Shown here piece after piece: positions 28,843 through 64,000 of a stretch of 64,000 nt of DNA. Position numbers and translations under genes: made by a program. The first letter of the stretch is position 1. Every line of letters starts with the position of its first letter. A model generated the notes under the pieces. The model ran no database searches and was not told where the DNA came from. It saw only the letters and a program-made list of their open reading frames with translations. This DNA is from Syntrophales bacterium (lineage in GTDB: Bacteria > Desulfobacterota > Syntrophia > Syntrophales > UBA2210): contig CAXXKT010000001.1 in NCBI GenBank assembly GCA_963662405.2, positions 1,888,001 through 1,952,000 on the forward strand, written 5' to 3'.

Positions 28843-28870
28843 CTCCCCGAAAAGTAACCGGTAATAGTAC

Positions 28871-47550: not shown

Positions 47551-47736
47551 CAAGGCTCCTCGAGGGATTGGTGCCGGCAGTATAGATGGATTGTCCGTAT
47601 GGATCAATCTCAAACTCGCGAGGTATGCTGACGCATTTCTGCTTGAATCGGGGAGATGGGGCAATGGGCAGCAAGCAGCCGCTGCGCATGTTACCGTATG
47701 CCCGGGAGTGAGCGGGCAATCGCAGCCAATGTCGAT

Positions 47737-47766
47737 AAAAAAGGGGTCACGACATCTCGTAACCCC
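47737..47766 (-). terminator. Terminator downstream of tRNA 3' fragment
   Basis: GGGGTTACGA...TCGTGACCCC followed by T6 on the minus strand. Confidence 0.7.
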
Positions 47767-47774
47767 TTGGAATC

Positions 47775-47819
47775 TGGAGCCGATGAGCGGATTTGAACCG
47801 CTGACCTGCTGATTACGAA
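47775..47819 (-). tRNA. 3' half of tRNA-Thr(CGT); island att site, no adjacent 5' half
   Basis: Minus strand TTCGTAA-TCAGC-AGGTC-AGCGG-TTCAAAT-CCGCT-CATCGGC-T-CCA: anticodon loop, T-arm, acceptor, CCA. Confidence 0.88.
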
Positions 47820-47876
47820 GTATTTGCTCCAGTTATATCTCATTAAAACAACTGATAAATGTGGAGAATCAATTGA

Positions 47877-48416
47877 CTACGTAGGCGTACAGACTTCGAC
47901 AATGGTCATCACAGCCCACCAGTTGATCACGTTTCCCAGTTCGGCGTGGGCGTGGGTGTGGTGGCCATAGATCTCTTTGTCGCCGGCATCGGTGATAACC
48001 GGCTCCTCGCCGCCAAGCATTTGACGAAATGCGTTCTGGATACCGGCGTTGCCTAGGTTGTTGATCGGATCGCCGAGGCCGAAACGCTCCCAGGTGAGCT
48101 GACAGCAGGGGCGGACGATCATCCAGTCGTATTTGTACATCTGATCCTGCAGCTCGCTGCCGGCATAGATCACATACGCATTGCTGACTGAGATGTCCGT
48201 CAGTGACCCGCGGGCTGTCTCGATCGAGACCGGGGAGGTGAAGTCCGAGATGTATGTCTGGGGATCCTCGTACCGCTGCTGCCACATCTCCCGGATTTCG
48301 GGGATGGCGGCGGCAATATCATGAGTATCGGTGTATTGATCAAACAGATACTCCTCGGACCGAGGAGTAATAATCCGTATGTCGTACGTTCGAAATCCAG
48401 CCCGTAACGGGATCAA
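47877..48416 (-). pseudogene. Probable fragment of a larger unknown gene
   Basis: GC-rich coding-like frame without a good start, at the island edge. Confidence 0.35.
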
Positions 48417-48585
48417 GGCATCGACGTGACAGACTGATAATCACGACGTATTGAATAGGTGAAAGCCTTGGGTGGAGCCTCTTGCTGTGGGCAATTGGCG
48501 CCCACTTGTCATGCTCCTCTCATGGCTTTTTCTTTGTGATCATCTATGCGTGTACTGACATTTCAACGATTCATCTTTCTCCCGT

Positions 48586-49129
48586 GTGTGGATTATCGGA
48601 TTGAGAAATCGAGAGACATCTTGTATAGAGATGGCCATAAAGGTCACCGCCATATACCAACCGGACCAGTCGACAAAATGCAAACGTCCCCTCTCTCTCG
48701 CCATCGAGAGGAACCTCGACCTGAGCCAGTATCTCATCAAGCACCCCGCCGCGACCTTTTTCGTGAAGGTGACGGGGAACTCCATGATCGACGCGGGGAT
48801 CCATGACGGGGACATCCTGATCGTCGACCGTTCCCTCAAGCCCGTCGATAAGAAGGTTGTCATAGCCGTCGTGAACGGCGAGCTGACCGTGAGGAGAATC
48901 AGAGTCACCAGAGGAAAGGGGGTCCCCCTTGACGCTTTTTGCTGAAAATCGAGAGAAACACTCCGACAAGATCATGCAGGTCCTCGACAGCATCAACCGC
49001 CGGTTCGGGGCCAACACGGTCCGCTGCGCCGCCACGAACTCCACTACAAACCAAAAATGGCAAACGGTGGCCGAGTGGCGTTCTCCTTCCTATACCACCA
49101 ACGGGGACCAGCTACCCCGCGTGTCGTAA
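48586..49129 (+). pseudogene. umuD: Deleted umuDC remnant (UmuD N-part joined to UmuC C-terminal tail)
   Basis: LIKHPAATFFVKVTGNSMIDAGIHDGDILIVDRS, then in another frame MQVLDSINRRFG...WRSPSYTT. Confidence 0.85.
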
Positions 49130-49160
49130 CAACATTACCATAAAAGGAGGTATCTTTCCC

Positions 49161-49508
49161 ATGGCCCTGAAAAAAGAAGGTCTAGTCAAATTAATCGAAG
49201 AGGAACTTGGCTTTCCCAAGAACAGATCGAAAGAGCTGGTAGAATCCGTCTTGGAGATCATGAAGCAATCACTGGAGGAGGGTGAAGAAGTGAAGATCAA
49301 TGGCTTCGGGAAGTTCTTCCTCATCGATAAGAAAGCCAGGAACGGGAGGAACCCACAAACGGGAGAGGATGTAATCATTGAACCCCGGAGGGTTGTTTCT
49401 TTCAAATTCTCCCCACAGGCGCGGGCCAAGCTCAACAGCGAATTGACATCACGCACCACTCAGAGCGGATCTGGCGCCTTCATGAAGCGAGCAACGAGAA
49501 GTCTTTAA
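49161..49508 (+). CDS. IHF-alpha/HU-like DNA-binding protein
   Basis: AGGAGG RBS; VKINGFGKF, RNGRNPQTGE. Confidence 0.92.
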   Translation: MALKKEGLVKLIEEELGFPKNRSKELVESVLEIMKQSLEEGEEVKINGFGKFFLIDKKARNGRNPQTGEDVIIEPRRVVSFKFSPQARAKLNSELTSRTTQSGSGAFMKRATRSL

Positions 49509-49521
49509 AGGAGGGATTACA

Positions 49522-50358
49522 ATGAGTGCTCGGAAACCACTTTTTAGCATCTTTACGTGTCTCTTTATTGTTGCTCTCATATTGGTTTCCCCACCTGGCG
49601 TTCAAGCTGTCGACTATTCGGAGATTCATTGCAAGCATTTCATCCACGGCTACCCAGCCGGCGTCCCACTGAGCAATGACCTCATTATTCGTGATATTTA
49701 CGCACTGTCGTCAAATGATGCGACCAAACTAGCGGATTGGGTCTGCTATCGCCTCGATAAAGAGACCGTCACCGGAGACGTGGAAACCTCAAGGAAATGG
49801 CAGGCTGATCCGTGGCTGGACGAGATCGAAACATTGGAGCCTTCTGATTATGCGGGCGCACATGCTGCCCTGCATGTAGACCGGGGGCATCAGGCTCCTT
49901 TGGGAAGCTTCAAGGGGACAAAGCAATGGGCTGATACGAACATGCTTTCAAATATAACCCCTCAAAAGGCAAACCTCAACCAGGGGCCCTGGAAGAAGCT
50001 TGAAGAAAAAGTGCGTGACCTTGCGAGGGCCGGTGATGTCGTTTATGTGATGACGGGGCCGCTATATGAGCGAGATATGCCAAAGCTGCCCGGGGCAGAT
50101 GAACCTCATTTGATTCCGTCAGGGTATTGGAAGATCATCGTCATACAACCAGACAAGGACATCAATTCCATCCGGACGGCAAGCTTCATCTTTGACCAAG
50201 AGACACCAAGAAATGATGCAGTAATCGATCATCTTTGCGCGATCAATGATATTGAGACAAAAACAGGGCTTGATTTTCTAAGAACCCTTCCCGACGAGAA
50301 GGAAGAAGAGATTGAAGGGGCAATGAATAACAGGTGGGTTGAAGCACAGTTTCAATGA
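49522..50358 (+). CDS. Secreted DNA/RNA non-specific endonuclease
   Basis: Signal peptide; DRGHQAP, SNITPQ...LNQGPW...LE. Confidence 0.92.
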   Translation: MSARKPLFSIFTCLFIVALILVSPPGVQAVDYSEIHCKHFIHGYPAGVPLSNDLIIRDIYALSSNDATKLADWVCYRLDKETVTGDVETSRKWQADPWLDEIETLEPSDYAGAHAALHVDRGHQAPLGSFKGTKQWADTNMLSNITPQKANLNQGPWKKLEEKVRDLARAGDVVYVMTGPLYERDMPKLPGADEPHLIPSGYWKIIVIQPDKDINSIRTASFIFDQETPRNDAVIDHLCAINDIETKTGLDFLRTLPDEKEEEIEGAMNNRWVEAQFQ

Positions 50359-50502
50359 TCTTTTCACGCTCAGCCGGACAAACAGAAGCCCCGGATGAGA
50401 GAGGTTTTTTCACCCGGGGCTTCCGCAGCAAAAGTATCGCCAATCCCTGCAGTGTTTGTGGTTAAATTGTACCACCCTACCGTCATAAATCAAGGATTTT
50501 TT

Positions 50503-50739
50503 ATGCCCGATAAAACAGCCCATATGCTTCAGAAAACCTTGGGGATCCTGAGCAAGCTCCAAAGCTATAGAGGTGAAGACTTTACAACGGGAATGCAAGA
50601 GTACCTCCAACTTGTGGACCAGTTCTACCGGGAGAACGAACATCTTGTGGCTCGCCAGCAATATGAAGTTGCACAGACAGATCCCGAGTACTTTTTGCGG
50701 CTCCTGGTTCTAGCCGAAGAGATCCACAAGGAGGAGTGA
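50503..50739 (+). CDS. Small hypothetical protein
   Basis: AAGGA RBS, helical composition. Confidence 0.5.
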   Translation: MPDKTAHMLQKTLGILSKLQSYRGEDFTTGMQEYLQLVDQFYRENEHLVARQQYEVAQTDPEYFLRLLVLAEEIHKEE

Positions 50740-50778
50740 TAGGATCAACCTTATCATCTACAATTGATCAGTAAGTTA

Positions 50779-50966
50779 AGGAGAATTTCGATGATTGTCT
50801 TTTGAAAGTCTCTCGGTAAAATTTCTTGACAATACATCATCGTAGAGTTACCTAAATAGCTGTTTTGATTTTGACGTTTTTTCTGCTTGCGAACGTCTGT
50901 AAGCAAGGAGGGATTATGGCCTGATCATCGAAGCCCTGTTTCTGAAAAAGAGAGGTGGGGCTTTTT
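50779..50966 (+). promoter_or_regulatory. Promoter + SD/mini-ORF + terminator leader, copy B
   Basis: TTGACA at 50826; AAGGAGGGATT-ATG GCC TGA; AAGCCC...GGGCTTTTT; upstream similar to 54042 and 59407. Confidence 0.6.
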
Positions 50967-51149
50967 GCTCCTTTCTAGCCACTCAACAACCATCAGGATA
51001 AGCTTTTTGAGGAAATATGGAGATGAAGCATCGCATAGCACGCCTACTGTGTTCATTGATTCTGTCCAATATCTCCCTAAATGTTTATGCAAGTGAACAA
51101 GGCAATCGAGTAACAAAAACTTTCTGGTCGATATGAAATAGGGATCAAG

Positions 51150-53747
51150 GTGTCGGTTATGAAGAAATGTGGCCCTCCTATCGTACGACTTCTCTGTTTC
51201 AGTTTTGCGATTTTTCTGCTCTTCCTAACAGCTTTCATTCTTCAGTCCGTGATTGCCCTCCGGGCTGAAGCCTCCCCAAACGCAAGTAAACCTCCCATCC
51301 TCTCCGCCTCTGAGCTTGATTACCCTCCCTTCTGCATCGTTGACGCTGAAGGCGAGCCAGACGGCTTTTCGGTGGAACTGCTGCGTGCAGCCCTGAAGGC
51401 CATGGGACGCGAGGTCACGTTCCGTACCGGGTCCCATGCCAAGGTGAGGGGCTGGCTGGAGGAAGGCAATGTTCGGGTTCTCCCCTTGGTGGCTCACACG
51501 CCGGAGCGTGAACACCTCTTTGACTTTACCTTCCCCTACATGTCTCTCCACGGCGCCATCGTGGTCAGGAAAGATGAAGAAACGATCCGAAATCTGGAGG
51601 ATCTGAGAGGGCGGCGAGTGGCCGTCATGAAAGGACATAGTGCCGAGGAGTTCCTGTGCCGTGGAGACCGGGGGATCGAGATTCTTACGGCTAACACTTT
51701 CCAAGATGCCCTCCATATCCTAACCGAAGGGCGCTGTGACGCCATCGTCATGCAGCGGCTTGTAGCGCTCCGTCTCATCCAGGAACACAGTTTAACAAAC
51801 CTCCGTGTTATCGAAAAACCCATCGAAAAATTCCGGCAGGATTTCTGCTTCGTCGTCAAGGATGGTGATCATGACGCACTGGCTCTCCTGAATGAAGGAC
51901 TCGCACTCGTCATGGCGGACGGAACTTACCGCCACCTGCATGCCAAGTGGTTCGCTGACCTCCAGCTTCCGTCCGACCGGTCCATTATTATCGGCGGAGA
52001 CTACAATTACCCTCCCTTTGAATACTTGGATGACAAAGGCCGCCCAAGGGGATTCACCGTCGAACTGACACGTGCCATCGCCCGCGCAATGGATATGGAT
52101 ATCCGGATTCACCTTGGCCCCTGGTCGGATATCGTCAGGAGCTTGGAGCAAGGCGATATTGACGTCATTCAAGGTATGTTCTACTCCCCGGATCGCGATC
52201 TTAAATTCGATTTCACCCAATCCTACTTAGCAAATCAGTACGTTGGCATTGTGCGCAAGGGCGAAGGTGATCCCCCTAACGGGACTGCTGACCTAATCGG
52301 TAAGCGCATCGTGGTGGAACGTAGTGACGTCATATACAACTTCCTGCTCGAACAAGGCTTGTCAAATCAGGTTACACTGGTTGAGACGCAGGAAGATGTT
52401 CTACGGGAACTGGCGGAGGGAAAACATGACTGCGCACTTGCCGTCAGGATCAGCTCCTTGTACCTGATTAAGAAGCACGGTTGGACTAACCTAGTTCTAG
52501 GTCGAAGTCCATTTGTTACGATGGAATACTGCTATGCTGTGCCGAACAATCGAAAGGCACTCCTGGCCCAGTTCAGCGAGGGGTTGAAGACTGTTGAACA
52601 AAGCGGTGAATACCACAGAATCCATGAAAAATGGATGGGGATTTACACGGAAAGACCGATAATCGAATTTCTGCGTTATACTGCAATGGTGGCCATTCCC
52701 CTCCTTCTCATTCTCTTGGCGATTTTTCTGTGGTCGTGGTCTCTGCGTAGAAAAGTGAGAATGAGAACAAAAGAACTGAGGGAGAGCGAGGAACGGTACC
52801 GTGCGTTTTTCGAAAACAGTATGGATGCCATTATGCTGACTGCACCTGATGGAAGAATCCTCGCCGCGAATCCGTCCGCCTGCGAGATGTTTGGCCGTAC
52901 TGAAGATGAAATCCTCGAACTGGGGAGGAAAGGGATAGTTGCTGCAACCGACCCGCAACTTACCACATTCTTGGCCCAGCGAAAAGCACAGGGGCGGGCG
53001 AGGGGAGAATTGACGCTGGTTCGAAAGGGTGGCTCACATTTTCCCGCCGAAGTAACCTCTGCCTTCTTCCGGGACAGCTCTGGAGCGACAAAGACCAGCA
53101 TGATTGTCCGAGACATGACCGACCGCAAAAAAGCAGAAGATGACCTTTTGAAAACTCTCGAACGACTCAGAAAGGCATTTGCCGCCACCATTCAGGTCCT
53201 GGTCTCAGCAGTTGAGATCAGAGATCCTTACACCGCCGGTCACCAGGTGCGGGTGGCACACCTTGCCCGTGCCATCGCCGAGGAGATGGGATTTGACGAG
53301 GAACGAATGGAAAACATACGCGTTGCCGGTCTCATTCATGACATTGGGAAGCTGTCAATCCCGGCGGAGATCCTTTCCAAGCCGACACAATTAACGCCAA
53401 TCGAATTCAGTCTTGTCAAAGAACATCCACGGAGCGGCTACGAGATACTGAAGAGCGTTGAGACCGAATGGCCACTGGCTGAAATCGTCTGCCAGCACCA
53501 TGAGCGGATGGATGGTTCAGGCTATCCACGACACCTGAAGGGAGATGAAATCCTCCTCGAGGCTCGAATCCTTGCTGTTGCCGATGTAGTCGAGGCCATG
53601 GTCTCCCATCGCCCCTGGCGCCCGGCCTTGGATATTGCGACTGCTTTGAATGACATAGAAAATAACAAGGGGATCCTTTACGATAATACCATTGTCGATA
53701 CCTGCTTGCGCTTGTTCCGGGAGAAAGGATACAAGTTACCGGAGTAA
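51150..53747 (+). CDS. HD-GYP phosphodiesterase with two periplasmic SBP-3 domains, TM and PAS
   Basis: DYPPF and NYPPFEY SBP motifs; RDPYTAGHQ, HDIGK, HHERMDGSGYP. Confidence 0.92.
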   Translation: MSVMKKCGPPIVRLLCFSFAIFLLFLTAFILQSVIALRAEASPNASKPPILSASELDYPPFCIVDAEGEPDGFSVELLRAALKAMGREVTFRTGSHAKVRGWLEEGNVRVLPLVAHTPEREHLFDFTFPYMSLHGAIVVRKDEETIRNLEDLRGRRVAVMKGHSAEEFLCRGDRGIEILTANTFQDALHILTEGRCDAIVMQRLVALRLIQEHSLTNLRVIEKPIEKFRQDFCFVVKDGDHDALALLNEGLALVMADGTYRHLHAKWFADLQLPSDRSIIIGGDYNYPPFEYLDDKGRPRGFTVELTRAIARAMDMDIRIHLGPWSDIVRSLEQGDIDVIQGMFYSPDRDLKFDFTQSYLANQYVGIVRKGEGDPPNGTADLIGKRIVVERSDVIYNFLLEQGLSNQVTLVETQEDVLRELAEGKHDCALAVRISSLYLIKKHGWTNLVLGRSPFVTMEYCYAVPNNRKALLAQFSEGLKTVEQSGEYHRIHEKWMGIYTERPIIEFLRYTAMVAIPLLLILLAIFLWSWSLRRKVRMRTKELRESEERYRAFFENSMDAIMLTAPDGRILAANPSACEMFGRTEDEILELGRKGIVAATDPQLTTFLAQRKAQGRARGELTLVRKGGSHFPAEVTSAFFRDSSGATKTSMIVRDMTDRKKAEDDLLKTLERLRKAFAATIQVLVSAVEIRDPYTAGHQVRVAHLARAIAEEMGFDEERMENIRVAGLIHDIGKLSIPAEILSKPTQLTPIEFSLVKEHPRSGYEILKSVETEWPLAEIVCQHHERMDGSGYPRHLKGDEILLEARILAVADVVEAMVSHRPWRPALDIATALNDIENNKGILYDNTIVDTCLRLFREKGYKLPE

Positions 53748-53807
53748 AAACCCAGCCAAGGTCCACAGCAGACATCCGATATAAGATTATTATATTTTAT
53801 TTGTAGG

Positions 53808-54094
53808 AGGAAGAATCGCGCAGCGAAAAGTATTTCTCGGATACTCCTGCTGCGATCCTCCCACTGTTCACTTATCCTCACAATCGAGTGCGCCGAGAGA
53901 TTACCGATTATTTATTGAAGTCGACATTCTGGGGGAAAGTCTCTGTGTAGCAGATTTCTTTCGGTAATGCGCAGGAATGATCAAAGAAAAAAGGAAACGT
54001 GCTGTTTATTGGTGTCACCTACAACTCCTCAAAATCTTTTCAGGAGAAAATCGATGATTACCGTTTGAAAGTCTCCCCTAATATCTCTTGACAA
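53808..54094 (+). repeat. ~290-bp non-coding direct repeat, copy 1
   Basis: Aligns with 59170-59460; 53901-54022 identical to 59266-59387; ends at TTGACA. Confidence 0.92.
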
Positions 54095-54167
54095 GGTGCC
54101 ATAATGGGGTTACTAGTCAAGCCATTCTATTGATTAGCTTTTTGTTAAGAATCACACAGGTACTCTT

Positions 54168-55115
54168 TTGTTACCGTTGGTGAGTATAGTGAAAAAAACG
54201 GTCATTCTTTTCGGTGCTGGTGCAAGTTACGGTGCAGGAGACATTCTTCCAGAGAAACCACCCCTAGGGTCGGATTTGTTCGATCGGCTGACAGCCTGTG
54301 CACCAAGAACTTGGGGTGCCCTACCATCTCCTTACCGTGATGAGTTCGTCACGAAAGGGTTTGAAGAAGGAATGGAACTTGTCTATGAGCAGCTATCGCA
54401 TCTGATTGCGCCACTGATGAGGGATATGGCTGTATATCTAATACAATACCGTCCTTTTTCATTTGAGTCAGCTTACGACCACCTACTCGAGCAATTATCG
54501 TCTCTTAGTCTTATTAACTCGGTTCTGTTCTCCACTCTCAACTACGATTGCATTCTGGAGTTTTGCCTTATTCATCGTGGTCATAAACCGTCCTATTGGG
54601 ATGAGGGTACAAACCATAACACGATTCCAGTATGGAAACTGCACGGATCGTCAAATTGGTTCACTTCTTCTGTGAAGGCGGGGTCGGGAGTATCATTTGG
54701 CAGAGGGGTTACATTTTCTGGCGGACTAGAGGCCTTCTTGGATATCGGAACAGTTGTTGAACACTGTTTGGTCAATCAAGGATTATATCCTGCAATGAGT
54801 CTTTATATGAAAGACAAACCTGTGCAGATTGCTCCCGAGCAAATCTTGCGCCTTCAATCAATGTGGAAAGACGCGGTTCTGAACGCACAGAACGTCATAT
54901 GTATCGGCGTAAACCCATTACCGGCGGACAGACATATATGGGAACCAATATCTGAAACCGATGCTCGTTTGTTTTTTGTTGGCGACAAGAACGCTTACGA
55001 CAAATGGATATCTAAGTATCGGTCAAAACCATCCATATATATTGATTGTTTTTTCGATTCAAGTGTCAAAAAACTGGTGAAGGGAGTGGCAGATGAACTT
55101 AACGGAAGCGGATAA
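54168..55115 (+). CDS. SIR2-like domain protein (start possibly GTG 54189)
   Basis: VILFGAGAS, STLNYD, KLHGS. Confidence 0.8.
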   Translation: MLPLVSIVKKTVILFGAGASYGAGDILPEKPPLGSDLFDRLTACAPRTWGALPSPYRDEFVTKGFEEGMELVYEQLSHLIAPLMRDMAVYLIQYRPFSFESAYDHLLEQLSSLSLINSVLFSTLNYDCILEFCLIHRGHKPSYWDEGTNHNTIPVWKLHGSSNWFTSSVKAGSGVSFGRGVTFSGGLEAFLDIGTVVEHCLVNQGLYPAMSLYMKDKPVQIAPEQILRLQSMWKDAVLNAQNVICIGVNPLPADRHIWEPISETDARLFFVGDKNAYDKWISKYRSKPSIYIDCFFDSSVKKLVKGVADELNGSG

Positions 55116-55386
55116 AAAGAAGATCCTAGAATGGCTCGAAGATAAATGCGGGGCCATGAGGTGTCTAGCCTGCGGGCAGAATCAGTGGGAGTTGTTACCT
55201 TTCTCAACTTTGCAGATTGGCTTTGACCTCCACACGACACGTTTTCACTATCACAACGGCATACCATTCATAGGTATCACATGTGTTCATTGCGGTTATG
55301 TAATGCAATTCAGTTCTGGGGTTATTGGCTTTAAGCCTGAACCACCCCAAAAACCAGAGATAAAAGAATCTGAAAAGGGTTCGTAA
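55093..55386 (+). CDS. Small Zn-ribbon protein
   Basis: CLAC...CVHCG; overlaps SIR2 stop; GGAG RBS. Confidence 0.7.
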   Translation: MNLTEADKKKILEWLEDKCGAMRCLACGQNQWELLPFSTLQIGFDLHTTRFHYHNGIPFIGITCVHCGYVMQFSSGVIGFKPEPPQKPEIKESEKGS

Positions 55387-55485
55387 ATCATTAACACTTA
55401 AAGCATTTTTTCGGGGTCTTGTATTGCAATTTTGCAGAGTTTCTTTTTTATAAAAAAAGTACGTATACATTAGTTACGGGGCAAT

Positions 55486-56367
55486 ATGGAAATACCAATA
55501 TTATTACAATTAATCTTTGCTGCTTTGTTAGGAACAGCGGGGTCTGTGATAGCTCAAAAATATATTGAAACCCATGCACCCCTAATAATTACTTTATGTA
55601 TAATTGGGATGGTTATCATAGGGGGTCATGGTATTTATCGTATTTACTCGAAAGATATTTTTAAAGTAACTTCCATTATCCAAGTGAGGCTCAAATGGCC
55701 TGGGCCTTTGGTGTTCTGTTACCCATCTGCATCAGGGAAGAATCTTTCTCCCATTAGCGTAGCCCTCTTCGTAGAAGTAGTTAATAACAAGGATGTTATC
55801 TCACGTATCTCCAGCTATGAGTGTAGAGCGTTGTTGGAATATGACGAAGGGGGAAATACTGTTGTTAACCATGCACCAAATGGAGGGATAAAACTTGAAT
55901 ACAAACCGGCAGGGAAAACTGTGACGAAGTGGAGGAATTTATATGGTATGGGATTTGTGGACAACCAAGTATATTATATAACTGATCATGACTGGAGAAA
56001 ATGCAAGCGCGTTGATTTTAGAAACAATGGTTTTGATAGGCTAGCCAAGGACACTCAATTAAATCCCGGCGAATCTTTAAAAGGGTGGATGTTTTTTGAA
56101 TTGGAACATGATTTAAGGGGTCAATTGCCTGAAATTAAAAAAGTGGAATTGACATTTACTAATTCAGTCGGAGAGTCACAGTCATTGAAAATTAAAATCA
56201 AACAAAACGTAAAGGATGACAACGACATGGTTAATTATATAAGTTCAGGTGAATGGATTCTTCTTGAAGGGTACCATGACCTTACAAAAGAAAAATATAC
56301 AATGACACCGATGGTTGACTTGCGTAGAATTTTAAAAACAGGAAAATCTATAATCGTAAACCCTTGA
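55486..56367 (+). CDS. AT-rich hypothetical protein with two N-terminal TM segments
   Basis: 293-aa ORF, hydrophobic N-terminus, beta-rich remainder. Confidence 0.7.
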   Translation: MEIPILLQLIFAALLGTAGSVIAQKYIETHAPLIITLCIIGMVIIGGHGIYRIYSKDIFKVTSIIQVRLKWPGPLVFCYPSASGKNLSPISVALFVEVVNNKDVISRISSYECRALLEYDEGGNTVVNHAPNGGIKLEYKPAGKTVTKWRNLYGMGFVDNQVYYITDHDWRKCKRVDFRNNGFDRLAKDTQLNPGESLKGWMFFELEHDLRGQLPEIKKVELTFTNSVGESQSLKIKIKQNVKDDNDMVNYISSGEWILLEGYHDLTKEKYTMTPMVDLRRILKTGKSIIVNP

Positions 56368-56440
56368 GCAGACATTAAAGCGGGATGTATAACAAATTCC
56401 CCTTACTATGGCATCAATCCGATAGGGGGGTACTGAATAT

Positions 56441-56505
56441 TGCTGATTACGAAATGAAATATACAACAACTCGATGCCGATTGGTTCCCTTGCTTTCAGG
56501 AAGGA
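56441..56505 (+). repeat. tRNA anticodon core copy + conserved arm
   Basis: TGCTGATTACGAA identical to 47807-47819; following ~50 bp similar to 63950-64000 (GAAAT...CTCGAT...ATTG...CTTTCAGGAAGGA). Confidence 0.8.
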
Positions 56506-56755
56506 GCAGATAATCTACATGAACCTAGAATGTGCAGCCCGAGTTGTGCATCTTTCAACCCGCATTCGATAAGGTTGGCTGACGAATTGTGGTGCTGACT
56601 TGTATTTGTAGTCAATAAATGTGGGAAATGGATTCGCGGCTTGGCTTTCAATCCGTACTGTTCAGGCAGGATAAAGGAAAATGCCAGAGTGTCGGTTATT
56701 GACGCCACCTACAAGTCCATACCTTTCGCTTTGGAATTGAAGTGAGAATTACCAC

Positions 56756-59056
56756 TTATAATCCAGTCTTTTCGAATGTAAACCCTTTTTCCCTGAACAG
56801 TTTTATGCAGGCATCCACCACATCTGCATCGTAAAGAATCCCCCGGTTGTCCTCGATCTCTTTCAGGCCCGCGTCGATACCCAGGGCGGCACGATAGGGA
56901 CGGTGGGAGGCCATGGCTTCGACTACGTCACAAACGGCCAGAATCCGGGCTTCCATGAGAATCTCATCACCTTTGAGATTTCTTGGATAGCCCGAGCCGT
57001 CCATCCGCTCATGGTGCTGGTAGACAATCTCCGCCAGCGGCCATGAGGATTCCACACCCTTCAGGATGTCGTAGCCTTTCTGGGCATGTTCCTTGATCAG
57101 GGAAAACTCGGTCTCCGTCAGCTTTCCTGGTTTGGACAATATCTCTGCGGGAACGGATAGTTTTCCGAGATCATGAATGGAACCGACTATATAGATACCT
57201 TCAATCATGTTTTGGGGAAGCTTCATCTCTGTGGCGATAGCACGGGCAAGGATCGCAACGCGGAGCTGGTGATTGGCAGTATAGGGGTCTCTGGCTTCAA
57301 CCGTGGATACTACGACCTGAATAGTAGCGTTGACGGCATGCCTGAGAAGCTCGAGGGTATTGACGAGGTCCTTCTCCGCCTGTTTGCGAACAGAGATGTC
57401 AAAAATGATGGAATGAAGGAGATCCTTGTTATTGACTTTGATTTTGCTGCTGAACACACCCACATCTCGAACTGAGCCGTCGGCCCGCCTGTGGCGAAAC
57501 TCGAAATGCACTTGTTTATTGCTTCTGGCCTCCTCCATCTCCTTTTTGATCTCTTCAGGCGAAAGGGTGTTGATCTCTTGAATCTTCATCTGCGTGAGTT
57601 GTGCACGCGACCATCCATAAAATTTCACCGCTGCCCTGTTGACATCAAGGATATCCCCAGTATCCGGATCTAAGATCATCTTAACTGCTGCATGGTCTTC
57701 AAATACTTTTCTGAAAAGCAATTCGCTTTCCCTTAAAGCCTCCTCCGCCCGCTTGCGCTCGGTGATATCCACGATACTGGTAATGAGGTAAAGGGGGATT
57801 CCTTGCGCATTACGCTGTAGCGTGGCGCTGACATCTGCCCAGACGGTATCGCCGTTTTTGTGGAGGTATCGCTTTTCAAATCGACAATCGGTCTGCTCAC
57901 CGGCTACGAGGGAACGGATATATTCCTGGCTTTCCGCTACGTCGTCCGGATGGGTGATGTGCTCGAAATTGAATTGTTGGAGTTTCTCGATACTATAACC
58001 CAGCATGTCGGCAAAGGCCCTGTTCACCTGCAGGAGACTTCCATCCGGCTTCGTCAGAGACTTGCCGATAGTGGTGCGTTCGAAAATGACACGAAACCGT
58101 TCTTCGCTTTCCTGAAATTCAATCTCTGCCTGCTTGCGGTCGGTAATATCGCGAAAAATACCCAGGAGAAAATCTTTATCGGATAATCGGACTTTTGCCG
58201 CCCGGATTTCAACCGGAACCACTGTGCCTCTTTTCGAAAGGAGTTGCTCTTCTAGCGTAATACCGGGATCTCCCTCCATGTGTTGTTTAAAGGTTCGAGA
58301 AATTTTTCCAATGATTGTTTCGGGAGGATGGAGAATTGCCTGATCCTTTCCGATAAGTTCTTGCTTGGTCCGCTCTACCATTCGGCATAAGCTCTGGTTG
58401 CAGTCTACCAGTCTGCAGGTTTCAATGTCAGCCAACGCCATACCGTCTTGAGCGTTATCAAACAGGGTTCGGTAACGCATTTCGGACTCATGCAGTACAT
58501 CCTCCTCATGTTTCCGTTCGGTAATATCACGAAGATTCATTACGAACCCTGCCACTAGCGGATCATCCAAAAGATTACTGCCGACACCTTCCAGGATGCG
58601 CACGGTGCCGTTTTGGTGCTTCACATGGAAACTGTTAGGGATGAGGTTCTCTTTGACGAACAATGCCCTGCCGAAATCCGTAACGGCCCTTGGCTTATCG
58701 TCAGGCACAATCAGATCTAAAACCCGCGTTCCGATCAACTCGCCCGGCTCATAGCCGAGAAAATGCTCAACGGAGGGGCTCACATATGAGATGAATCCCC
58801 GCTTATCCAAGACAACGATGATACCGGATGAGTTCCGGATGATCGCCTGGTAATACTCCGCATTTTCCCGTACCGTTGTTGAGACCTTCTTGCGTTCTGG
58901 CTTAGATTGCTTCGGTTTCTTGATTTTCCGTTTCGAGGCGGATATTTTTTTGATCGGTTCTTGATTTATTCTGGTTGAATTTCGCACATTACCCCTCGCG
59001 TTGTAGCAAAAGGGATGATCCGAAAACAAAAATAGGCAAGCTGATATGAAAAACAT
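56756..59056 (-). CDS. Multi-PAS HD-GYP phosphodiesterase (start uncertain)
   Basis: Four PAS/PAC repeats ending DITxRK-like; RDPYTANHQ, HDLGK, HHERMDGSGYP. Confidence 0.9.
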   Translation of the reverse strand: MFFISACLFLFSDHPFCYNARGNVRNSTRINQEPIKKISASKRKIKKPKQSKPERKKVSTTVRENAEYYQAIIRNSSGIIVVLDKRGFISYVSPSVEHFLGYEPGELIGTRVLDLIVPDDKPRAVTDFGRALFVKENLIPNSFHVKHQNGTVRILEGVGSNLLDDPLVAGFVMNLRDITERKHEEDVLHESEMRYRTLFDNAQDGMALADIETCRLVDCNQSLCRMVERTKQELIGKDQAILHPPETIIGKISRTFKQHMEGDPGITLEEQLLSKRGTVVPVEIRAAKVRLSDKDFLLGIFRDITDRKQAEIEFQESEERFRVIFERTTIGKSLTKPDGSLLQVNRAFADMLGYSIEKLQQFNFEHITHPDDVAESQEYIRSLVAGEQTDCRFEKRYLHKNGDTVWADVSATLQRNAQGIPLYLITSIVDITERKRAEEALRESELLFRKVFEDHAAVKMILDPDTGDILDVNRAAVKFYGWSRAQLTQMKIQEINTLSPEEIKKEMEEARSNKQVHFEFRHRRADGSVRDVGVFSSKIKVNNKDLLHSIIFDISVRKQAEKDLVNTLELLRHAVNATIQVVVSTVEARDPYTANHQLRVAILARAIATEMKLPQNMIEGIYIVGSIHDLGKLSVPAEILSKPGKLTETEFSLIKEHAQKGYDILKGVESSWPLAEIVYQHHERMDGSGYPRNLKGDEILMEARILAVCDVVEAMASHRPYRAALGIDAGLKEIEDNRGILYDADVVDACIKLFREKGFTFEKTGL

Positions 59057-59169
59057 TTGTGAAATCTACATGATAACTGTTGAAATGTCAACATGGGATA
59101 TCGTCCATCAAACGCTGCTTACCGTTTAAAAGAATGTATTTTCATCAACGCTGACGTCTTACTGATTGC

Positions 59170-59460
59170 AGGAAGAATCGCGCAGCAAAAGTACTTCTCG
59201 AACACTCCTACGGCGATTCTCCCACTCTTCACCTACTTATCCTCACCATCGAGTGCGCCGAGAGGTTACCGATTATTTATTGAAGTCGACATTCTGGGGG
59301 AAAGTCTCTGTGTAGCAGATTTCTTTCGGTAATGCGCAGGAATGATCAAAGAAAAAAGGAAACGTGCTGTTTATTGGTGTCACCTACTACTGCTCAGAAT
59401 AATTTCAGGAGAAAATCGAGCATTATCATTTGAAAGTCTTAACACAAAATTCCTTGACAA
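59170..59460 (+). repeat. ~290-bp non-coding direct repeat, copy 2
   Basis: Aligns with 53808-54094. Confidence 0.92.
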
Positions 59461-59603
59461 TACATTGTCTTAGAGTTAACCAAGTTAGCAGATTTGATCT
59501 TTATGTTTTTATCTGCTTGTGAACGCTTGTACCCAAGAGGGGGGATTATGGTTCGGACATCAAAGCTCTGTTTCTCAAAATGAGGAATAGGGCTTTTCTT
59601 TTT
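59454..59603 (+). promoter_or_regulatory. Promoter + SD/ATG + terminator leader, copy C
   Basis: TTGACA at 59454; GAGGGGGGATT-ATG; 16-bp stem AAAGCTCTGTTTCTCA/TGAGGAATAGGGCTTT then T-rich. Confidence 0.6.
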
Positions 59604-59669
59604 GTGAACTGTACGATCCAATTGGGGGTACTATACTGCATAATCTTAGATGTTTACGATATGATACGA

Positions 59670-59692
59670 GATACATATAAATATTGTTAGCG
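59670..59692 (+). other. attI-like first recombination site of cassette array
   Basis: GTTAGCG core complementary to CGCTAAC at 61449; no attC hairpin upstream. Confidence 0.55.
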
Positions 59693-59732
59693 AGTTGTCG
59701 TGTCAGAGCAAACCGCATTGAGGTCTTAAAAA

Positions 59733-61409
59733 ATGGTGACAAGCCCGGAACCGGGAGGGGAAAAAACACGTCTCAGGATTGATCAAGCCAATGTGTTTTA
59801 TAACTACGCGATAGGATTCGAAGCTAATTCTGTTGACCTCGTTGGAACGGCAAGAAAGCTCCTGAAAAAAGGGATTGCGAAAGCTGTATTTTTCTCTGAC
59901 CGCAAAGTCCTATACACCGACGCGGACGGGAAAGTACAGATAGAGTTGATACAACCACAAGGTCGGCAATGGGACCACCGCTGGAAGGTCGAATTTGACT
60001 CAAAAATCCCCGCCGATGTCGATGCCGAACTTATCCTTGCATTCGAAGTGTCATTTGTTGAACACCGTATGGATGGCCCTAACGCTGGAAATATTCCGCC
60101 CTATCTCAGGGCCAGCCTTCCGCCGATTGTGTTGGAATCGGATGAGTTGCAGTTGCCTATTTTCGCGTCAATCAAACTGTTCGCTGACGGAATCGCCATC
60201 TTGAGTTTTCAGCTTGATGCTACTTGGGATGGTGTTGACGAGGAATACTTTGTATCGAACATTGTAAATATTTATCAGTGCTACTTCAACTCCATATGGG
60301 TCGATTCTCAAATTCAACGGCTTGATGCAGAAACGATACTGCCGGTAGCGTTCCAAGACGAGATATCCCTCGCTGGAAATCCGATTGGGGGCCGCAAAGT
60401 AAATAAATTATTGCGGAAGATGCGAATGGAAAGCCAAGCCTTAATAAACAAAGACCTCGGCGAGCAAGGGCGGCAGTTTGAAGTTGGCAATGAGCAATGG
60501 GTTCTACACCCGATTATTGGGACCAAGAACCAAGACTCGTGGGAATCAACACTAGATTTATGTCGACTTGAGTATTCTAATGCTTTGAGTGCGCTACTCG
60601 TGCATGGTCGAAAACAGCGGAAGATCCAGGCACAGTCCGCGTACTCGTGGCAAGGTCGACCTTCTGTTGCTCTTATGCGTTTCCGCAGGCAACCCACGAC
60701 TAAGGATGATCTCCTAAGCGGTTTCGCACCCTCATTGTCACGAATACTCATGCGGTCAGCAACCTTGGAAACGCCGCCAGATCTTCCTCCAGATCTACGA
60801 CTTTTTGGAGATTACTGCTTCCATGGAAATCGTTCTTTGCTCCTCTGGACATGGCTGCTTCCGCATGGGGCGCTAGTCAACGCTTGGGAGGAGTCGGAAT
60901 CGCGTTCCGCTCTTATGGAACACCAAGCGCGTTCCGAGCACATTGAATACCACAACATGCGGATCGTCCGCGCATGCGAAATGGCCCAATCTCCACTATC
61001 TGATAACCACCTGAGAGAAGCCTATGAAACCCTAGCCTCGCTCCACGATGTGATTCACCATAGCAGCCAGGCGGGGGAGATTACAAATGCGCTGACGTAT
61101 CTCTTAGAAGAGAGCGGTACGACGAAGCTGGTGGCTCCTGCGAAGGAAGCAGCACGCTGGCACCTTGACGAGTTGCGATACAGGTCTGATAAACGCCGAA
61201 CCCGCGTGGATTATTGGCTCTCCTTCGTTTTTGGGCTAGTCGGAACCACAGGGTTGGCAGATTTTGCCATTCGGCCCTTTCTGGTCAACGCTTGGCCTGG
61301 TCTCAGTCGTGAAGCGACCCCGCTTGTCGCGTTAGGAATCGCTGGCTTAATCGTCTCTTTGATAGCTCTCTCCATATGGTTCCTTAACAGGGGAGAATCG
61401 GACGACTAG
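59733..61409 (+). CDS. Cassette protein with two C-terminal TM helices (CorA-like topology)
   Basis: 558-aa ORF; large soluble region, helical stretch, then 2 hydrophobic segments. Confidence 0.75.
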   Translation: MVTSPEPGGEKTRLRIDQANVFYNYAIGFEANSVDLVGTARKLLKKGIAKAVFFSDRKVLYTDADGKVQIELIQPQGRQWDHRWKVEFDSKIPADVDAELILAFEVSFVEHRMDGPNAGNIPPYLRASLPPIVLESDELQLPIFASIKLFADGIAILSFQLDATWDGVDEEYFVSNIVNIYQCYFNSIWVDSQIQRLDAETILPVAFQDEISLAGNPIGGRKVNKLLRKMRMESQALINKDLGEQGRQFEVGNEQWVLHPIIGTKNQDSWESTLDLCRLEYSNALSALLVHGRKQRKIQAQSAYSWQGRPSVALMRFRRQPTTKDDLLSGFAPSLSRILMRSATLETPPDLPPDLRLFGDYCFHGNRSLLLWTWLLPHGALVNAWEESESRSALMEHQARSEHIEYHNMRIVRACEMAQSPLSDNHLREAYETLASLHDVIHHSSQAGEITNALTYLLEESGTTKLVAPAKEAARWHLDELRYRSDKRRTRVDYWLSFVFGLVGTTGLADFAIRPFLVNAWPGLSREATPLVALGIAGLIVSLIALSIWFLNRGESDD

Positions 61410-61448
61410 CCTGTGGCTGATCAGGAGCTCTGATTAAAGGCTACGATT

Positions 61449-61519
61449 CGCTAACATGTCACTTGAGGGGGATGTGAAAAACGCTGGCGCCTTTCCCCGG
61501 CCTCAGTTCATCGTTACCG
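61449..61519 (+). other. Integron attC site
   Basis: CGCTAAC-5nt-ACT(T)GAG...CTCAGT-5nt-GTTACCG. Confidence 0.85.
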
Positions 61520-61533
61520 CCGTTGAGTCACAC

Positions 61534-62463
61534 ATGAACATCGATTTGATTGAAAATTATTTTCTACAGAAATACCCTGGCGATGGCCGACGTAAGGCGA
61601 TACGTGAAGAGCTTACAATTTGTTGCATTGATTTTGTAAAGTCTGGATTGGCTGATTCGAATTTCATCAATGAACTGTGTTCCGGTTCGGAAAACAAATT
61701 TTGGTCCCGTCTGTCGGAGGCATTATTATCAGCACGCCTAAAAAACGTAGGACTAATTCCCGAACCATCGCAAGGTGGTGGCCCTGATTTTTATGTAATT
61801 GATAATGGTCTAAAGGTCTGGATCGAAGTTATTTGTCCTGAACCAACAGGTTTACCAACCGAATGGACAGAACCAGAAACGGGTAAAGCGATAAGCTTTC
61901 CGTATGAGCAAATTCTTCTGCGTTAGACAAGCGCCATAAAGGAGAAGGCAGAAAAGTTACTTGGTAGCATGGATGGAGAAGGTAGAGGCTATATTGAAAA
62001 AGGAATTGTCTCTATTGACGACGCATATGTAATCGCTGTTAATGGCCGCAAGCTTCGTAGTGGCAATCCTTTCCCTGAACTTTATGGTATAAGCCAGTTT
62101 CCCTTTGCAGTTGAAGCGGTTTTTGCTGTCGGCCCATATCAGATAAAAATAGATCGCGATACGCTTAAACAAACAGGTGATGGACATCAGCACAGACCGT
62201 TAATAGCAAAACCTAAAGGAATGCCTGTCCCTGCTTACACTTTTCTTGATGAGAGATTTCAGCCAATCAGTGCCATTTGGGCTGTGGATATAGATGGCAC
62301 GTCTGCGATTGGAAACTCAGAGCCAATGGTTGTGGTTCATAATCCAAATGCAGTTAATTCAATATCAACTGGCTTTTTGCCGGCCCATGATGAGTATGTG
62401 GCTACTCCTATCAAAACGGATGAATATGAACTGAAAAGACTTGATGGTAACTTACTTGACTGA
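61534..62463 (+). pseudogene. Cassette gene with PD-(D/E)xK-like motif, interrupted by in-frame TAG at 61924
   Basis: ORFs 61456-61926 and 61969-62463 are in the same frame; GPDF...WIEV motif. Confidence 0.75.
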
Positions 62464-62504
62464 CGCACAAAAAGCGTGCGCGCCCCACAGCAGAAACGTT
62501 AAGA
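62445..62504 (+). other. Degenerate attC site
   Basis: TGGTAAC (6/7 complement of GTTACCG at 61513), CGCAC/GTGCG hairpin, GTTAAGA. Confidence 0.6.
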
Positions 62505-62583
62505 TGCTTGTCTGTTCGGCTGCAGCGGACACATCGCTTGAGCCATCGGGCAGCCTGAGACGGTGTGCTAAAGGAATAAAGGC

Positions 62584-63786
62584 ATGAAAAAATATCACGT
62601 CGCATTGTCGTTCGCTGGTGAAGATCGCAATTATGTTGATAACGTCGCAAGAAGATTGCAGGACTGCGGTGTCAAGGTCTTTTATGACAAGTTCGAGGAA
62701 ACCAATTTGTGGGGGAAGGACCTCTACACATACCTGTCAGATGTGTATCAGAATCAGGCGTTTTTCACGGTCATGTTTATCTCTGAGGACTACAAACGGA
62801 AGTTGTGGACAAATCACGAGCGGACAAATGCCCAGGCCCGAGCCTTCTCAGAGAACCGCGAGTACATCCTGCCGGCATTCTTCGATACGAGCGTTGAAGT
62901 TCCGGGAGTACTGAAAACGACTGGATACGTGGACCTCTCAACGCTACCCCCTGAGGAATTCGCAGACAAGATTATCGACAAACTTGAGAAATCAAACGTC
63001 CTACTACTCACGGAGGTGCATTACTCATATTCCGATGTCGCTCGTGCAGACGTAGATTTTCCGATCCGGGACGGAGACGAAGTCTCAGAGATTATCACTG
63101 CCCTTCGATCAAATAACTGGTACACACAGAACCCAGCGATAGAGAAAATCTTCAAGCTTGATTGGAAGAAGCGGACCTCGGATGAGGCATTTGTCCTTGG
63201 ACGGAATATCTATCAATGCGCGGACGGAGGCGAGCGCCGGGCCGAGGCAATCATGAATGACCTACGGCGCGAGTTTGCGAAGTTCCCTGACGAATGGGCC
63301 ACACATATCCTGAATGGCATGTTCTACGAGGCATACTTCAACCACGAGGGGAATTTCAGGGGATCGAAGCTAAAAAGCAAGTTTCTCTCGCACTTATTCG
63401 CTATCGAGACTGTGGCAAAATTCGAAAAGACCATCACGTACATCCAGTACGTGCTCGATCCGTACCGAGGCAGCCTTGGCGTCCTACCGAATAAGTCTCC
63501 CGAGGTGCTGCGGATTAGAGTCAAAATCGAGGAAAAGGACCCACCGGTGGTCACGAGCATAAAGGCTCAAGGGAAGGAGCAACTGGTAACCAGCTCTGAA
63601 GATTTAGACGATCCCGGCTGGCGGTTCTCCTACCGTGGATTTACGTTGGATGGATTCCCCGAGCAGCTCATGAAGTTTTGGAATATCCCAGAGGACCACT
63701 TTGAGATTGATTACGACAAGGATCTTCCAGGCATAACCAAAGTCCACTTGCCCAAGGGGACGACGTTGGGACAACTGAAAGTGTGA
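62584..63786 (+). CDS. TIR-domain protein with C-terminal domain of unknown function
   Basis: YHVALSFAGEDR, VFYD, WGKDL, FISEDY, WTNHER. Confidence 0.9.
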   Translation: MKKYHVALSFAGEDRNYVDNVARRLQDCGVKVFYDKFEETNLWGKDLYTYLSDVYQNQAFFTVMFISEDYKRKLWTNHERTNAQARAFSENREYILPAFFDTSVEVPGVLKTTGYVDLSTLPPEEFADKIIDKLEKSNVLLLTEVHYSYSDVARADVDFPIRDGDEVSEIITALRSNNWYTQNPAIEKIFKLDWKKRTSDEAFVLGRNIYQCADGGERRAEAIMNDLRREFAKFPDEWATHILNGMFYEAYFNHEGNFRGSKLKSKFLSHLFAIETVAKFEKTITYIQYVLDPYRGSLGVLPNKSPEVLRIRVKIEEKDPPVVTSIKAQGKEQLVTSSEDLDDPGWRFSYRGFTLDGFPEQLMKFWNIPEDHFEIDYDKDLPGITKVHLPKGTTLGQLKV

Positions 63787-63815
63787 AGCGCTTTTCGGGA
63801 TTATCAGGGGGTGCG

Positions 63816-63941
63816 GCCGAACCTGTAGCTGCAGCAGACAGCCAGGGCCGTGGCATTTCAGACAATACGGAGTAGCTTGAAATTAAACGCATTATCCAAG
63901 TTCAGTGGAGGCCCTGGCTGCTGCTGAGCATGGCGTTACTG
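63816..63941 (+). other. Integron attC site
   Basis: GCCGAAC-5nt-GCT(G)CAGCAG(A)CAGCCAGGGCC...GGCCCTGGCTGCTGCTGAGC-5nt-GTTACTG. Confidence 0.9.
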
Positions 63942-64000
63942 ATTACGAAAAGAAATGAGATTATCTCGATCCCAATTGATTCTAACACTTTCAGGAAGGA
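63939..64000 (+). repeat. tRNA anticodon core copy + conserved arm (runs off window)
   Basis: CTGATTACGAA plus arm similar to 56454-56505. Confidence 0.8.

Follow-up and report, generated by a model that had tools for sequence, protein, structure and literature searches.

The right-hand end of the window (the whole stretch of 64,000 nt analysed here) is the cargo half of a single virus-derived island inserted in tRNA-Thr(CGT); it is not built from small elements that each target a tRNA. The overall account given here, including the proposals on cassettes, packaging and leader, has a probability of roughly 0.6. This island, termed B, measures 38,843 bp and carries its own integrase, a repressor, a primase and intact TerS and TerL; head and tail genes are absent. 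It shows the features of a tRNA-integrated island, namely an intact tRNA at one end, a duplication of the tRNA 3' part at the other end and an integrase beside the att site (Table 1). The right arm of B consists of the early and packaging genes of a temperate, lambda-like phage, and its left 21 kb is cargo, standing in place of the head and tail genes of a complete sister prophage. In a comparison with relatives for an empty site, six tRNA-Thr(CGT) loci of the same genus, with flanks of about 1.5 kb, lacked the host genes on the left of B, and no close relative of the Thr integrase was retrieved with this query in 37 genomes of the family (E 1e-60). A first-pass annotation had described integrase-less elements, which is contradicted by the integrase found beyond the window edge. 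The rightward extension that it proposed did reveal the intact tRNA-Thr(CGT) and this integrase, but the integron integrase IntI was found elsewhere in the genome.

Table 1. Features of the island; coordinates above 64,000 continue the window numbering.
Position	Strand	Feature	Remark
47737..47819	-	attR: 45-bp 3' half of tRNA-Thr(CGT) and terminator	83-bp duplication of the far island end
47737..64000	.	Left (cargo) part of the island	Island runs on past the window edge
48586..49129	+	umuD-like and umuC C-terminal (DUF4113) remnants	
49161..50358	+	IHF/HU-like gene and non-specific endonuclease	Block also at C1:300104-301535 (89%)
50801..50966	+	Complete leader	TTGACA, SD, ATG-GCC-TGA, intrinsic terminator
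51150..53747	+	SBP-SBP-PAS-HD-GYP gene	SBP_bac_3 x2, PAS, HD_5
53808..54127	+	Platform repeat (R2), then promoter-only truncated leader	
54168..56367	+	SIR2-like, 97-aa and 293-aa membrane-protein genes	
56441..56718	+	Repeat head (has CTGATTACGAA) and R3 arm	Not a tRNA att junction
56756..59056	-	PAS x4 HD-GYP gene	PAS x4, HD_5
59163..59601	+	Platform repeat (R2) and leader	Reads ATG-GTT-CGG
59625..59690	+	Solo attI	Homologous to attI beside the genome's intI, 3/21 mismatches at crossover end
59733..61520	+	Cassette 1	558-aa protein, family unknown, C-terminal membrane segments; attC 61447-61520
61534..62500	+	Cassette 2	Single gene with in-frame TAG; attC truncated
62584..63941	+	Cassette 3	TIR-domain gene, attC 63816-63941
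63934..64000, arm to ~64237	+	Repeat head (second "core" of the first-pass annotation) and R3 arm	Directly after attC GTT
64267-68624		HD-GYP remnant, GGDEF-EAL gene, RelE-type pair	
69940-72734	-	TerL and TerS	
73060-84491		Methylases, primase, CII-like and CI genes	
84644-85663	+	Island integrase	
86504-86617	-	attL with intact tRNA-Thr(CGT)	

The cargo of the island hangs on a dispersed non-coding platform composed of a repeat head, R2 and R3 repeats, a leader and, in places, a solo attI. The repeat claimed previously was confirmed at 53808-54074 and 59170-59439 (271 nt, 91.5% identical), and TTGACA follows each of the two copies. Downstream of the second copy, the platform opens into a cassette array. 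The expected attC sites were recovered with unequal quality: 63816-63941 was called by the scanner and has a bottom-strand fold z of -2.8, 61447-61520 is weaker (-1.7) and the site near 62446-62500 is truncated (-0.2). In addition, a 97% identical copy of the TIR cassette, from a contig of another study, ends at the attC crossover. Since the cassettes lie between attI and the next repeat head, the second presumed tRNA core corresponds to the right flank of the site at which cassettes insert. Seven attI-like sites were detected in the genome, compared with 0-1 for shuffled references, and four of them have a leader 50-67 nt upstream. No intI adjoins the array; TIGR02249 scored above its cut-off only at C1:2211990 and in a split copy at C1:30608-31553. 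The attI of the window is homologous to that of the genome's IntI, and the chromosomal IntI probably acts on it in trans. The idea of an integron-type platform served in trans is thereby upheld, as is that of two nested levels of site-specific recombination, a solo attI being located inside an integrated island. The outer level, on the other hand, consists not of small integrase-less units but of a single 38.8-kb island that encodes an integrase and is bounded by a complete attL/attR pair.

Both HD-GYP genes noticed previously were confirmed, on opposite strands, and 1450 nt of the second is 95.7% identical to a copy on C2. HD-GYP genes within 500 nt of the platform amount to 8 of 24, versus 74 of 2012 long ORFs in a control list that includes shadow frames; this is an enrichment beside the platform only, and a role as a fixed unit part was ruled out. 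The cargo at 54168..56367 contains no attI and no convincing attC, and its interpretation as cassettes was discarded, as the two candidate attC fold no better than shuffles (z about 0). Its SIR2 gene retains a SIR2_2 match, albeit a weak one below the cut-off (E 8e-4), while the proposed Zn-ribbon has no match in Pfam, PHROG, PADLOC or NCBIfam. The 558-aa and 293-aa cargo proteins matched no named family.

B is one of several related elements of the genome. A (39,976 bp), B and C (41,732 bp) are headless islands, whereas D (42,940 bp) is a complete sister prophage, and E (31,915 bp) has lost TerL and is broken. A TerL search matches four elements, and the packaging arm is 92-95% identical at the DNA level among the headless islands and D. 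The structural proteins of D (portal, protease-capsid, decoration, neck, tube-like and tape measure) match only D, so that portal, capsid and tail genes are found in D alone. The headless islands share a common junction after TerL and occupy three tRNA genes with different integrases and repressors. Both B and D have S24-type repressors. In a genome of the same family, a 42%-identical TerL is likewise followed by the same repeat head within about 380 bp. Since the headless islands and D share their packaging arm and measure 38.8-42.9 kb, packaging by a helper is suggested. The headless islands would excise and replicate by themselves, and their own terminase would package them into heads made by D; if so, this would explain why they stay phage-sized. 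Judged from sequence comparison, this scenario has about an even chance of being correct. The agreement in size rests on three islands, which speaks against helper packaging. In the openly accessible part of the literature, no description of phage-length head-less sisters was found.

The leader occurs in about 50 copies in this genome, in the order TTGACA, SD-AUG-codon-stop and terminator, and in 34 of 61 genomes of the class; it also precedes both intI genes. It has the promoter, SD, uORF and intrinsic terminator of a leader-peptide attenuator, and a downstream gene on the same strand (43 of 52 copies). The terminator stem covaries in relatives at 11 of 12 pairs, and the stop interchanges among TGA, TAA and TAG. 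An SD-ATG-codon-stop arrangement 8-10 nt before the stem was found in 28 of 226 terminators, and none was found with zero or two middle codons; since the leader copies are homologous, these 28 are not independent events. We consider it an evenly balanced possibility that the leader acts as an attenuator coupled to the ribosome. A ribosome initiating at the SD-AUG, which lies 17-25 nt ahead of the terminator stem, would linger at the third-codon stop; it would then hinder the stem, letting RNA polymerase enter the acquired genes, whereas without such a ribosome an RNA of about 110 nt would be released. The leader ahead of the attI of the window has lost the stop of its mini-ORF, because it reads CGG at this position, and counts against the attenuator reading. 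Consensus folds contain the terminator alone and no antiterminator. An RNA thermometer or anti-SD hairpin was rejected: single copies fold in this way, but SD pairing is 0.55 vs 0.47 and 0.55 vs 0.61 for shuffles. A generic promoter and terminator scan gave chance-level counts, with the leader promoters not among its calls, and Rfam 15 yielded only three chance hits over 47000-64000 (E 1 or higher). The leader is apparently undescribed; no description was found in the openly accessible literature, although motif lists in supplements could hold such a leader.

The arrangement proposed at first, in which an integrase supplied in trans inserted small integrase-less units as a tandem series, each unit ending in a tRNA-Thr core, has some observations on its side. 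The 11-mer CTGATTACGAA is indeed present at 47809, 56443 and 63939, so that 16 kb hold three copies in register, and it occurs eight times in the genome compared with a mean of 1.2 for shuffled 11-mers. The repeat head and its arm are present twice, the arm after 56443 recurring after 63939 over 637 nt (83.7%), including a 3' piece of HD-GYP. Moreover, platform modules cluster near tRNA genes, tRNA-Thr(CGT) included in two relatives. However, matches to the tRNA on the left of the internal 11-mers reach only 11/34 and 9/34, compared with 34/34 at 47809, whereas the ten perfect att duplications of the genome span 45-51 bp each. Tandem att cores were therefore ruled out: the sole true tandem, at tRNA-Arg(TCT), carries the entire 48-bp 3' half at each of its two junctions, and the internal junctions lack any such half. 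The internal matches to CTGATTACGAA are sequence variants of the dispersed repeat head, which contains the 11-mer in 3 of 22 copies here and 2 of 8 in relatives and occurs at many non-Thr loci of this genome and its relatives; no tRNA-Thr was found within the 18 relative loci. The two units are not homologous either, their common sequence being limited to the repeat, 218 nt of leader and the HD-GYP domain (opposite strands, 68%), and the supposed third unit at the edge has no closing 11-mer but an HD-GYP remnant and a GGDEF-EAL gene, leading into the toxin-antitoxin pair and the phage arm. Contigs of run X1, which may be the source sample, span both internal 11-mers with zero differences, and the 56443-63939 joint is absent among the 15 listed of 86 joints in contigs, which drop rare forms; runs X4 and X5 contributed small shares only to this search. 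Given also the island's own integrase, the small-unit model is very improbable and already largely refuted, and a new family of such elements finds no support. With the single island retained, it is possible, though we lean the other way, that the headless elements are immobile domesticated prophage remnants whose sizes match by chance. One head/tail deletion would have been copied by recombination among resident prophages, with cargo piled at insertion hot-spots. Consistent with this, A-E form a mosaic of 92-99% identical blocks, the cargo holds decayed genes, E is broken, and outside relatives of TerL are mainly complete phages (of 12 loci with at least 3 kb downstream, some of them duplicates, 9 have a portal gene next). 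Domestication fits less well with the open integrase, primase, TerS and TerL frames kept in three islands at three tRNA genes, and with island lengths of 90-97% of that of the complete sister despite mostly unrelated cargo. It also fits less well with the pairwise dN/dS of 0.09-0.27 for primase, TerS and TerL, although these low values could predate the deletion or stem from recombination with D, the islands being clearly mosaic.

A comparable choice concerns the leader, which might not be read by ribosomes and could instead be a free-standing small RNA gene or the site of a protein antiterminator, either Nus factors acting on a boxA-like motif or the second NusG paralog of the genome. Of 63 copies in relatives, 35 have TGA and 3 have TAA as third codon, but 17 have AGA, CGA or GGA, indicating that conservation is stronger for the GA at +8/+9 than for the stop. 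This pattern, the NusG paralog at C1:1449233 and the resemblance by eye of the leader motif to a candidate boxA of the host rRNA leader are all in favour of such a role. The boxA match is nevertheless barely higher than that of shuffles (7.3 vs 6.2-6.6 of 12), the spacing of SD and start codon to the stem is constant in all families in which they are conserved, and the excess of same-strand genes, 43 to 6, is compatible with a cis element. A leader independent of ribosomes thus seems rather unlikely.

Taken together, the headless islands could be phage-length natural replacement vectors that selection maintains in a form which a resident sister phage can package, with an attI payload bay and a new class of two-codon ribosome-sensing attenuator commanding a regulon of about 50 members, but this combined picture is speculative and, as a whole, unlikely. 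The regulon would cover acquired defence and c-di-GMP genes plus the integron integrase. With the leader over both the cassettes and the integron integrase, cassette shuffling and expression would share one translation-linked switch. If the packaging proposal is true, the loss of virion genes need not lead to decay: such a prophage can turn into a full-length carrier of cargo, and defence and signalling genes amounting to about 20 kb would be moved on the particles of a sister. If the attenuator proposal is true, one portable switch would control intI, the solo attI arrays and dozens of acquired genes that are unrelated to each other.

In lambda defective transducing phages and replacement vectors, virion genes are swapped for foreign DNA of similar length and a helper is needed. 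The islands resemble them in this replacement, but are natural, multi-copy and associated with different tRNA genes, integrases and repressors. In E. coli O157 Sakai, defective prophages (Sp4, Sp7 and Sp13) are complemented by co-resident ones, and elements without head genes can be excised and packaged with proteins of other prophages, according to the accessible text of PMC2669165. Several related prophages per genome are common to both cases, whereas here a single clean loss of the entire head-tail block is common to three sisters, which retain both terminase subunits and have been refilled with cargo to near phage length. In the accessible part of the SatelliteFinder paper (PMC10085698), the median size of PICIs is 9.5 kb, and the components listed for cf-PICIs include TerL alongside capsid genes. 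The island is PICI-like in its integrase, regulator, primase and TerS, and in a helper dependence that we infer; however, at 39 kb with an intact TerL it departs from the PICI criteria of small size and no TerL, as far as these are stated there. Unlike a cf-PICI, it has no capsid, portal or head-tail proteins of its own, and unlike either type its packaging arm is 92-95% identical to that of the presumed helper.

Leader-peptide attenuators such as trpL and the vmlR and whiB7 uORFs place a uORF beside an intrinsic terminator, as does the leader described here. Mobile attenuators, one terminator family upstream of unrelated genes, are described in the accessible text of PMC2965389, and the terminator family of the leader likewise stands ahead of unrelated genes. 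The leader differs from these attenuators in its own promoter, its two-codon uORF without an amino-acid-specific run and its roughly 50 copies per genome. Finally, CALIN and SALIN arrays, and a CALIN with its own attI in the Shewanella prophage M16-3, appear in the accessible parts of PMC9892861 and bioRxiv 10.1101/2022.09.11.507474. The present array shares with them attC cassettes without an adjacent intI and, with M16-3, an attI-led array in a cryptic prophage, whereas here the attI exists in seven copies, four directly behind the same promoter-terminator leader, and a conserved repeat closes the arrays.

The window, C1:1888001-1952000, carries the left cargo part of a single 38,843-bp element (hereafter island B), bounded by a partial duplication of tRNA-Thr(CGT). 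No tRNA gene was found by ARAGORN within the 64-kb window, but extension of the sequence to the right revealed both the intact tRNA-Thr(CGT) and an adjoining tyrosine integrase. Since the island has its own integrase beside the tRNA, it is not integrase-less, as was initially proposed in the first-pass annotation, and at the outer recombination level a phage integrase of the usual tRNA-targeting kind acts on this single large island. The tRNA side also codes for a CI repressor with an S24 peptidase, a CII-like protein, a D5-type primase, two methylases, TerS and a GpA-type TerL. The GC content of the cargo part is 47.9%, compared with 53.5-56.3% in the flanks. Two copies of the integrase 3' end bracket an HTH gene beside attL and are possibly the scar of an earlier insertion; two repeats upstream of terS are a candidate packaging or late-promoter region.

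Features of island B, its sister elements and related loci (window numbering, continued past 64000; C1, contig of the same genome G000; L, individual extracted loci)
Feature	Coordinates	Strand	Length	Remarks
Duplicate of tRNA-Thr(CGT) 3' half + terminator	47737-47819		83 bp	95%
Intact tRNA-Thr(CGT)	86542-86617	-		ARAGORN; right of window edge
Tyrosine integrase	84644-85663			adjoins tRNA-Thr(CGT)
Integrase 3'-end copies	L002:3542-3713, L002:4349-4530		182 bp	92%
Repeats upstream of terS	L001:10721-11074		155 bp each	73%
Solo attI	59625-59690			homologous to attI ahead of cassette array of C1:2211990 integron
Cassette protein	59733-61409		558 aa	
Leader outside island	28856-29020			full copy, ahead of 397-aa gene
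Unbroken IntI	C1:2211990			above TIGR02249 cut-off
Split IntI	C1:30608-31553			
Leaders of the intI genes	C1:2211685-2211835, C1:31700-31860			L010, L017
Two-recombinase elements	C1:131360-133331, C1:159876-161859			L105
Terminator with SD-ATG-codon-TGA	C1:1674283			L106
Second NusG paralog	C1:1449233-1449736			
Element A			39,976 bp	in tRNA-Arg(CCT)
Element C			41,732 bp	in tRNA-Arg(TCT)
Element D	C1:2335572-2378511		42,940 bp	in tRNA-Met; L013, L014, L101; arm runs on into portal, protease-capsid, decoration, neck and tape-measure genes
Element E			31,915 bp	in tRNA-Lys; TerL lost, primase broken
tRNA-Cys element	C1:2438121-2447742		9.6 kb	L107

Two internal 11-mer sites, at 56443 and 63939, had been taken for tRNA att cores. 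Ten perfect att duplications in the genome, including both junctions of a true tRNA-Arg(TCT) tandem, extend over 45-51 bp, whereas the internal sites match over 13 and 11 bases, respectively, which argues against such an assignment. In the 34 bases to their left, 11 (56443) and 9 (63939) positions match. A profile of the 11-mer and its arm gave 22 matches genome-wide, with free variation across the 11-mer positions; the exact 11-mer is present in only three of these 22 repeat heads, the third copy being inside the Arg(TCT) tandem. Three heads sit directly 3' of attC sites detected with the attC scanner and, by eye, about six more lie behind attC-like hairpins. Among 18 loci fetched from relatives, eight heads were found, two with the 11-mer and several immediately after an attC, and no tRNA-Thr was present within the fetched flanks. 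The excess of the 11-mer in the genome (8 copies versus a mean of 1.2 for shuffles) is explained by its presence at two att sites and in three homologous heads. Misassembly at these internal repeats is argued against by contigs of a sequencing run, possibly the source sample, that span both sites without differences.

The two consecutive units, thought to share one order, have only three features in common: a 271-nt repeat (91.5%), a 218-nt leader (75%) and an HD-GYP domain on opposite strands (68%). The genome contains about 20 copies, whole or partial, of the R2 and R3 repeats of the dispersed noncoding platform; their second halves are homologous and, by eye, they appear as diverged copies of a ~150-nt unit. 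The supposed pairing of HD-GYP genes with the platform holds as an enrichment within 500 nt of its modules (8/24 versus 74/2012 long ORFs) but not inside islands A or C, where none of the 24 is located. The platform is also an insertion hot-spot common to two-recombinase elements, inserted at its CAGGAAG and CACCT motifs, and IS, one of which lies near a third motif (L105).

The first-pass observation was thus confirmed in part. As for its interpretation, two nested site-specific levels, a tRNA-level integrase and an attI/attC integron level, are retained, whereas the outer tandem of integrase-less units is replaced by one large island. The inner level would consist of IntI acting in trans on solo attI sites. 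An intact and a split IntI were found in the genome, neither beside the window array. Seven attI-like sites (at most 4/21 mismatches) were counted, versus 0-1 in 15 shuffled references, and four of the seven have a leader 50-67 nt upstream. The window array comprises three cassettes, the last with a strong attC (z -2.8), the first with a weak one and the middle with a truncated one. On a contig from another study, the TIR cassette is 97% identical; the match ends at 63938, the attC crossover, and the 269 further letters do not fit the window. PMC9892861 and bioRxiv 10.1101/2022.09.11.507474 describe arrays that lack a neighbouring intI, among them one that has its own attI and lies in a cryptic prophage. 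The intact intI is directed towards its own array, with an IS3-like element between intI and attI. The 558-aa cassette protein belongs to unnamed ESM Atlas clusters (score 0.98), has a weak CorA-like neighbour and is possibly a membrane-acting defence protein.

The TTGACA reported ahead of the cargo opens a 170-nt element, the leader, with 65 profile matches in the genome, 53 of them at half length or more. Its order is TTGAC, 86-108 nt, ATG (47/53), one codon, TGA (40/53) and a hairpin ending in a U-tract. When terminators were searched without a model, 28 of 226 had SD-ATG-codon-stop located 8-10 nt ahead of them; none had zero or two middle codons, and one had three. In 43 of 52 copies, the leader and the next long gene share a strand, in six they are on opposite strands and in three no such gene is present; 16 of 52 leaders are in att-bounded islands, which make up 7% of the genome. 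The genes downstream are varied accessory genes, and both intI genes are preceded by a diverged leader, which has TAA in one case and TGA in the other. With a covariance model, the leader was detected in 34/61 genomes of the class and 8/101 of the phylum, own genome counted. Among 70 copies fetched from relatives (the top matches of each genome and additional copies from several, rather than every match), 63 have the start codon, with TGA (35), TAA (3) or AGA/CGA/GGA (17) as the third codon. Covariation concerns 11 of 12 stem pairs, above all 500 shuffles, in an alignment fitted to the model. Since the AUG lies 17-25 nt before the stem, approximately one ribosome footprint, we favour, from sequence, a putative ribosome-coupled attenuator. 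Tests for an anti-SD hairpin and for a boxA signal gave no support to either. The leader has no match in Rfam, and no description was found in the literature searched, the closest concept being that of 'mobile attenuators' as presented in PMC2965389; this multi-copy two-codon leader, with its proposed mechanism, appears to be newly seen here. Another terminator with SD-ATG-codon-TGA (L106) is apparently unrelated in sequence to the leader family. The second NusG paralog is located downstream of a ribD-like gene (labelled by eye), outside any obvious polysaccharide cluster.

The primase-to-terminase arm of the island is common to five elements, A-E. D is an apparently complete prophage with a fused protease-capsid gene, and its structural proteins have no match elsewhere in the genome. 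A, B and C diverge from D about 270 nt past the TerL stop and have the following segment in common. Their cargo is mostly unrelated, except for 4.3 kb common to A and C. Defence matches are abundant in the cargo: A carries a type II restriction-modification pair and a ThsB-like TIR, C carries GajB and PDC-M45, and D has PD-Lambda-5 between its integrase and the tRNA-Met 11 kb away. A-D all retain open TerL, TerS and primase frames, whose pairwise dN/dS is 0.09-0.27. Once observed IS copies are subtracted, A, B and C measure ~38.7, ~38.8 and ~39.2 kb, respectively, versus 41.7 kb for D. Since lambda-type packaging tolerates only a window of DNA lengths, these near-phage lengths suggest selection for packaging in the heads of D. 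Against such selection, the islands number only three, mosaic recombination could account for both the identity and the dN/dS of the sister elements, and most outside relatives are normal phages, with a portal after TerL in 9/12 loci having at least 3 kb downstream (one short spurious match left out, some loci being duplicates). In one same-family genome, a TerL 42% identical is followed ~380 bp downstream by a platform head in the same orientation, at the contig end; in another such genome, no portal match was found in the 6 kb after TerL. A permuted prophage layout can mimic a head-less element: in related phages (L123, L124, L115), either no further gene separates TerL from the att site or the tape-measure gene is found upstream of terS.

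Complementation of defective prophages is known from E. coli O157, as reported in PMC2669165. The tRNA-Cys element, which holds the sole HK97-type capsid match of the genome, is possibly a cf-PICI. Island B itself, compared with PICIs and cf-PICIs as delineated in PMC10085698, fits neither class; what seems to be newly seen here is a set of phage-length head-less sisters, possibly packaged by a helper, beside a complete helper candidate.
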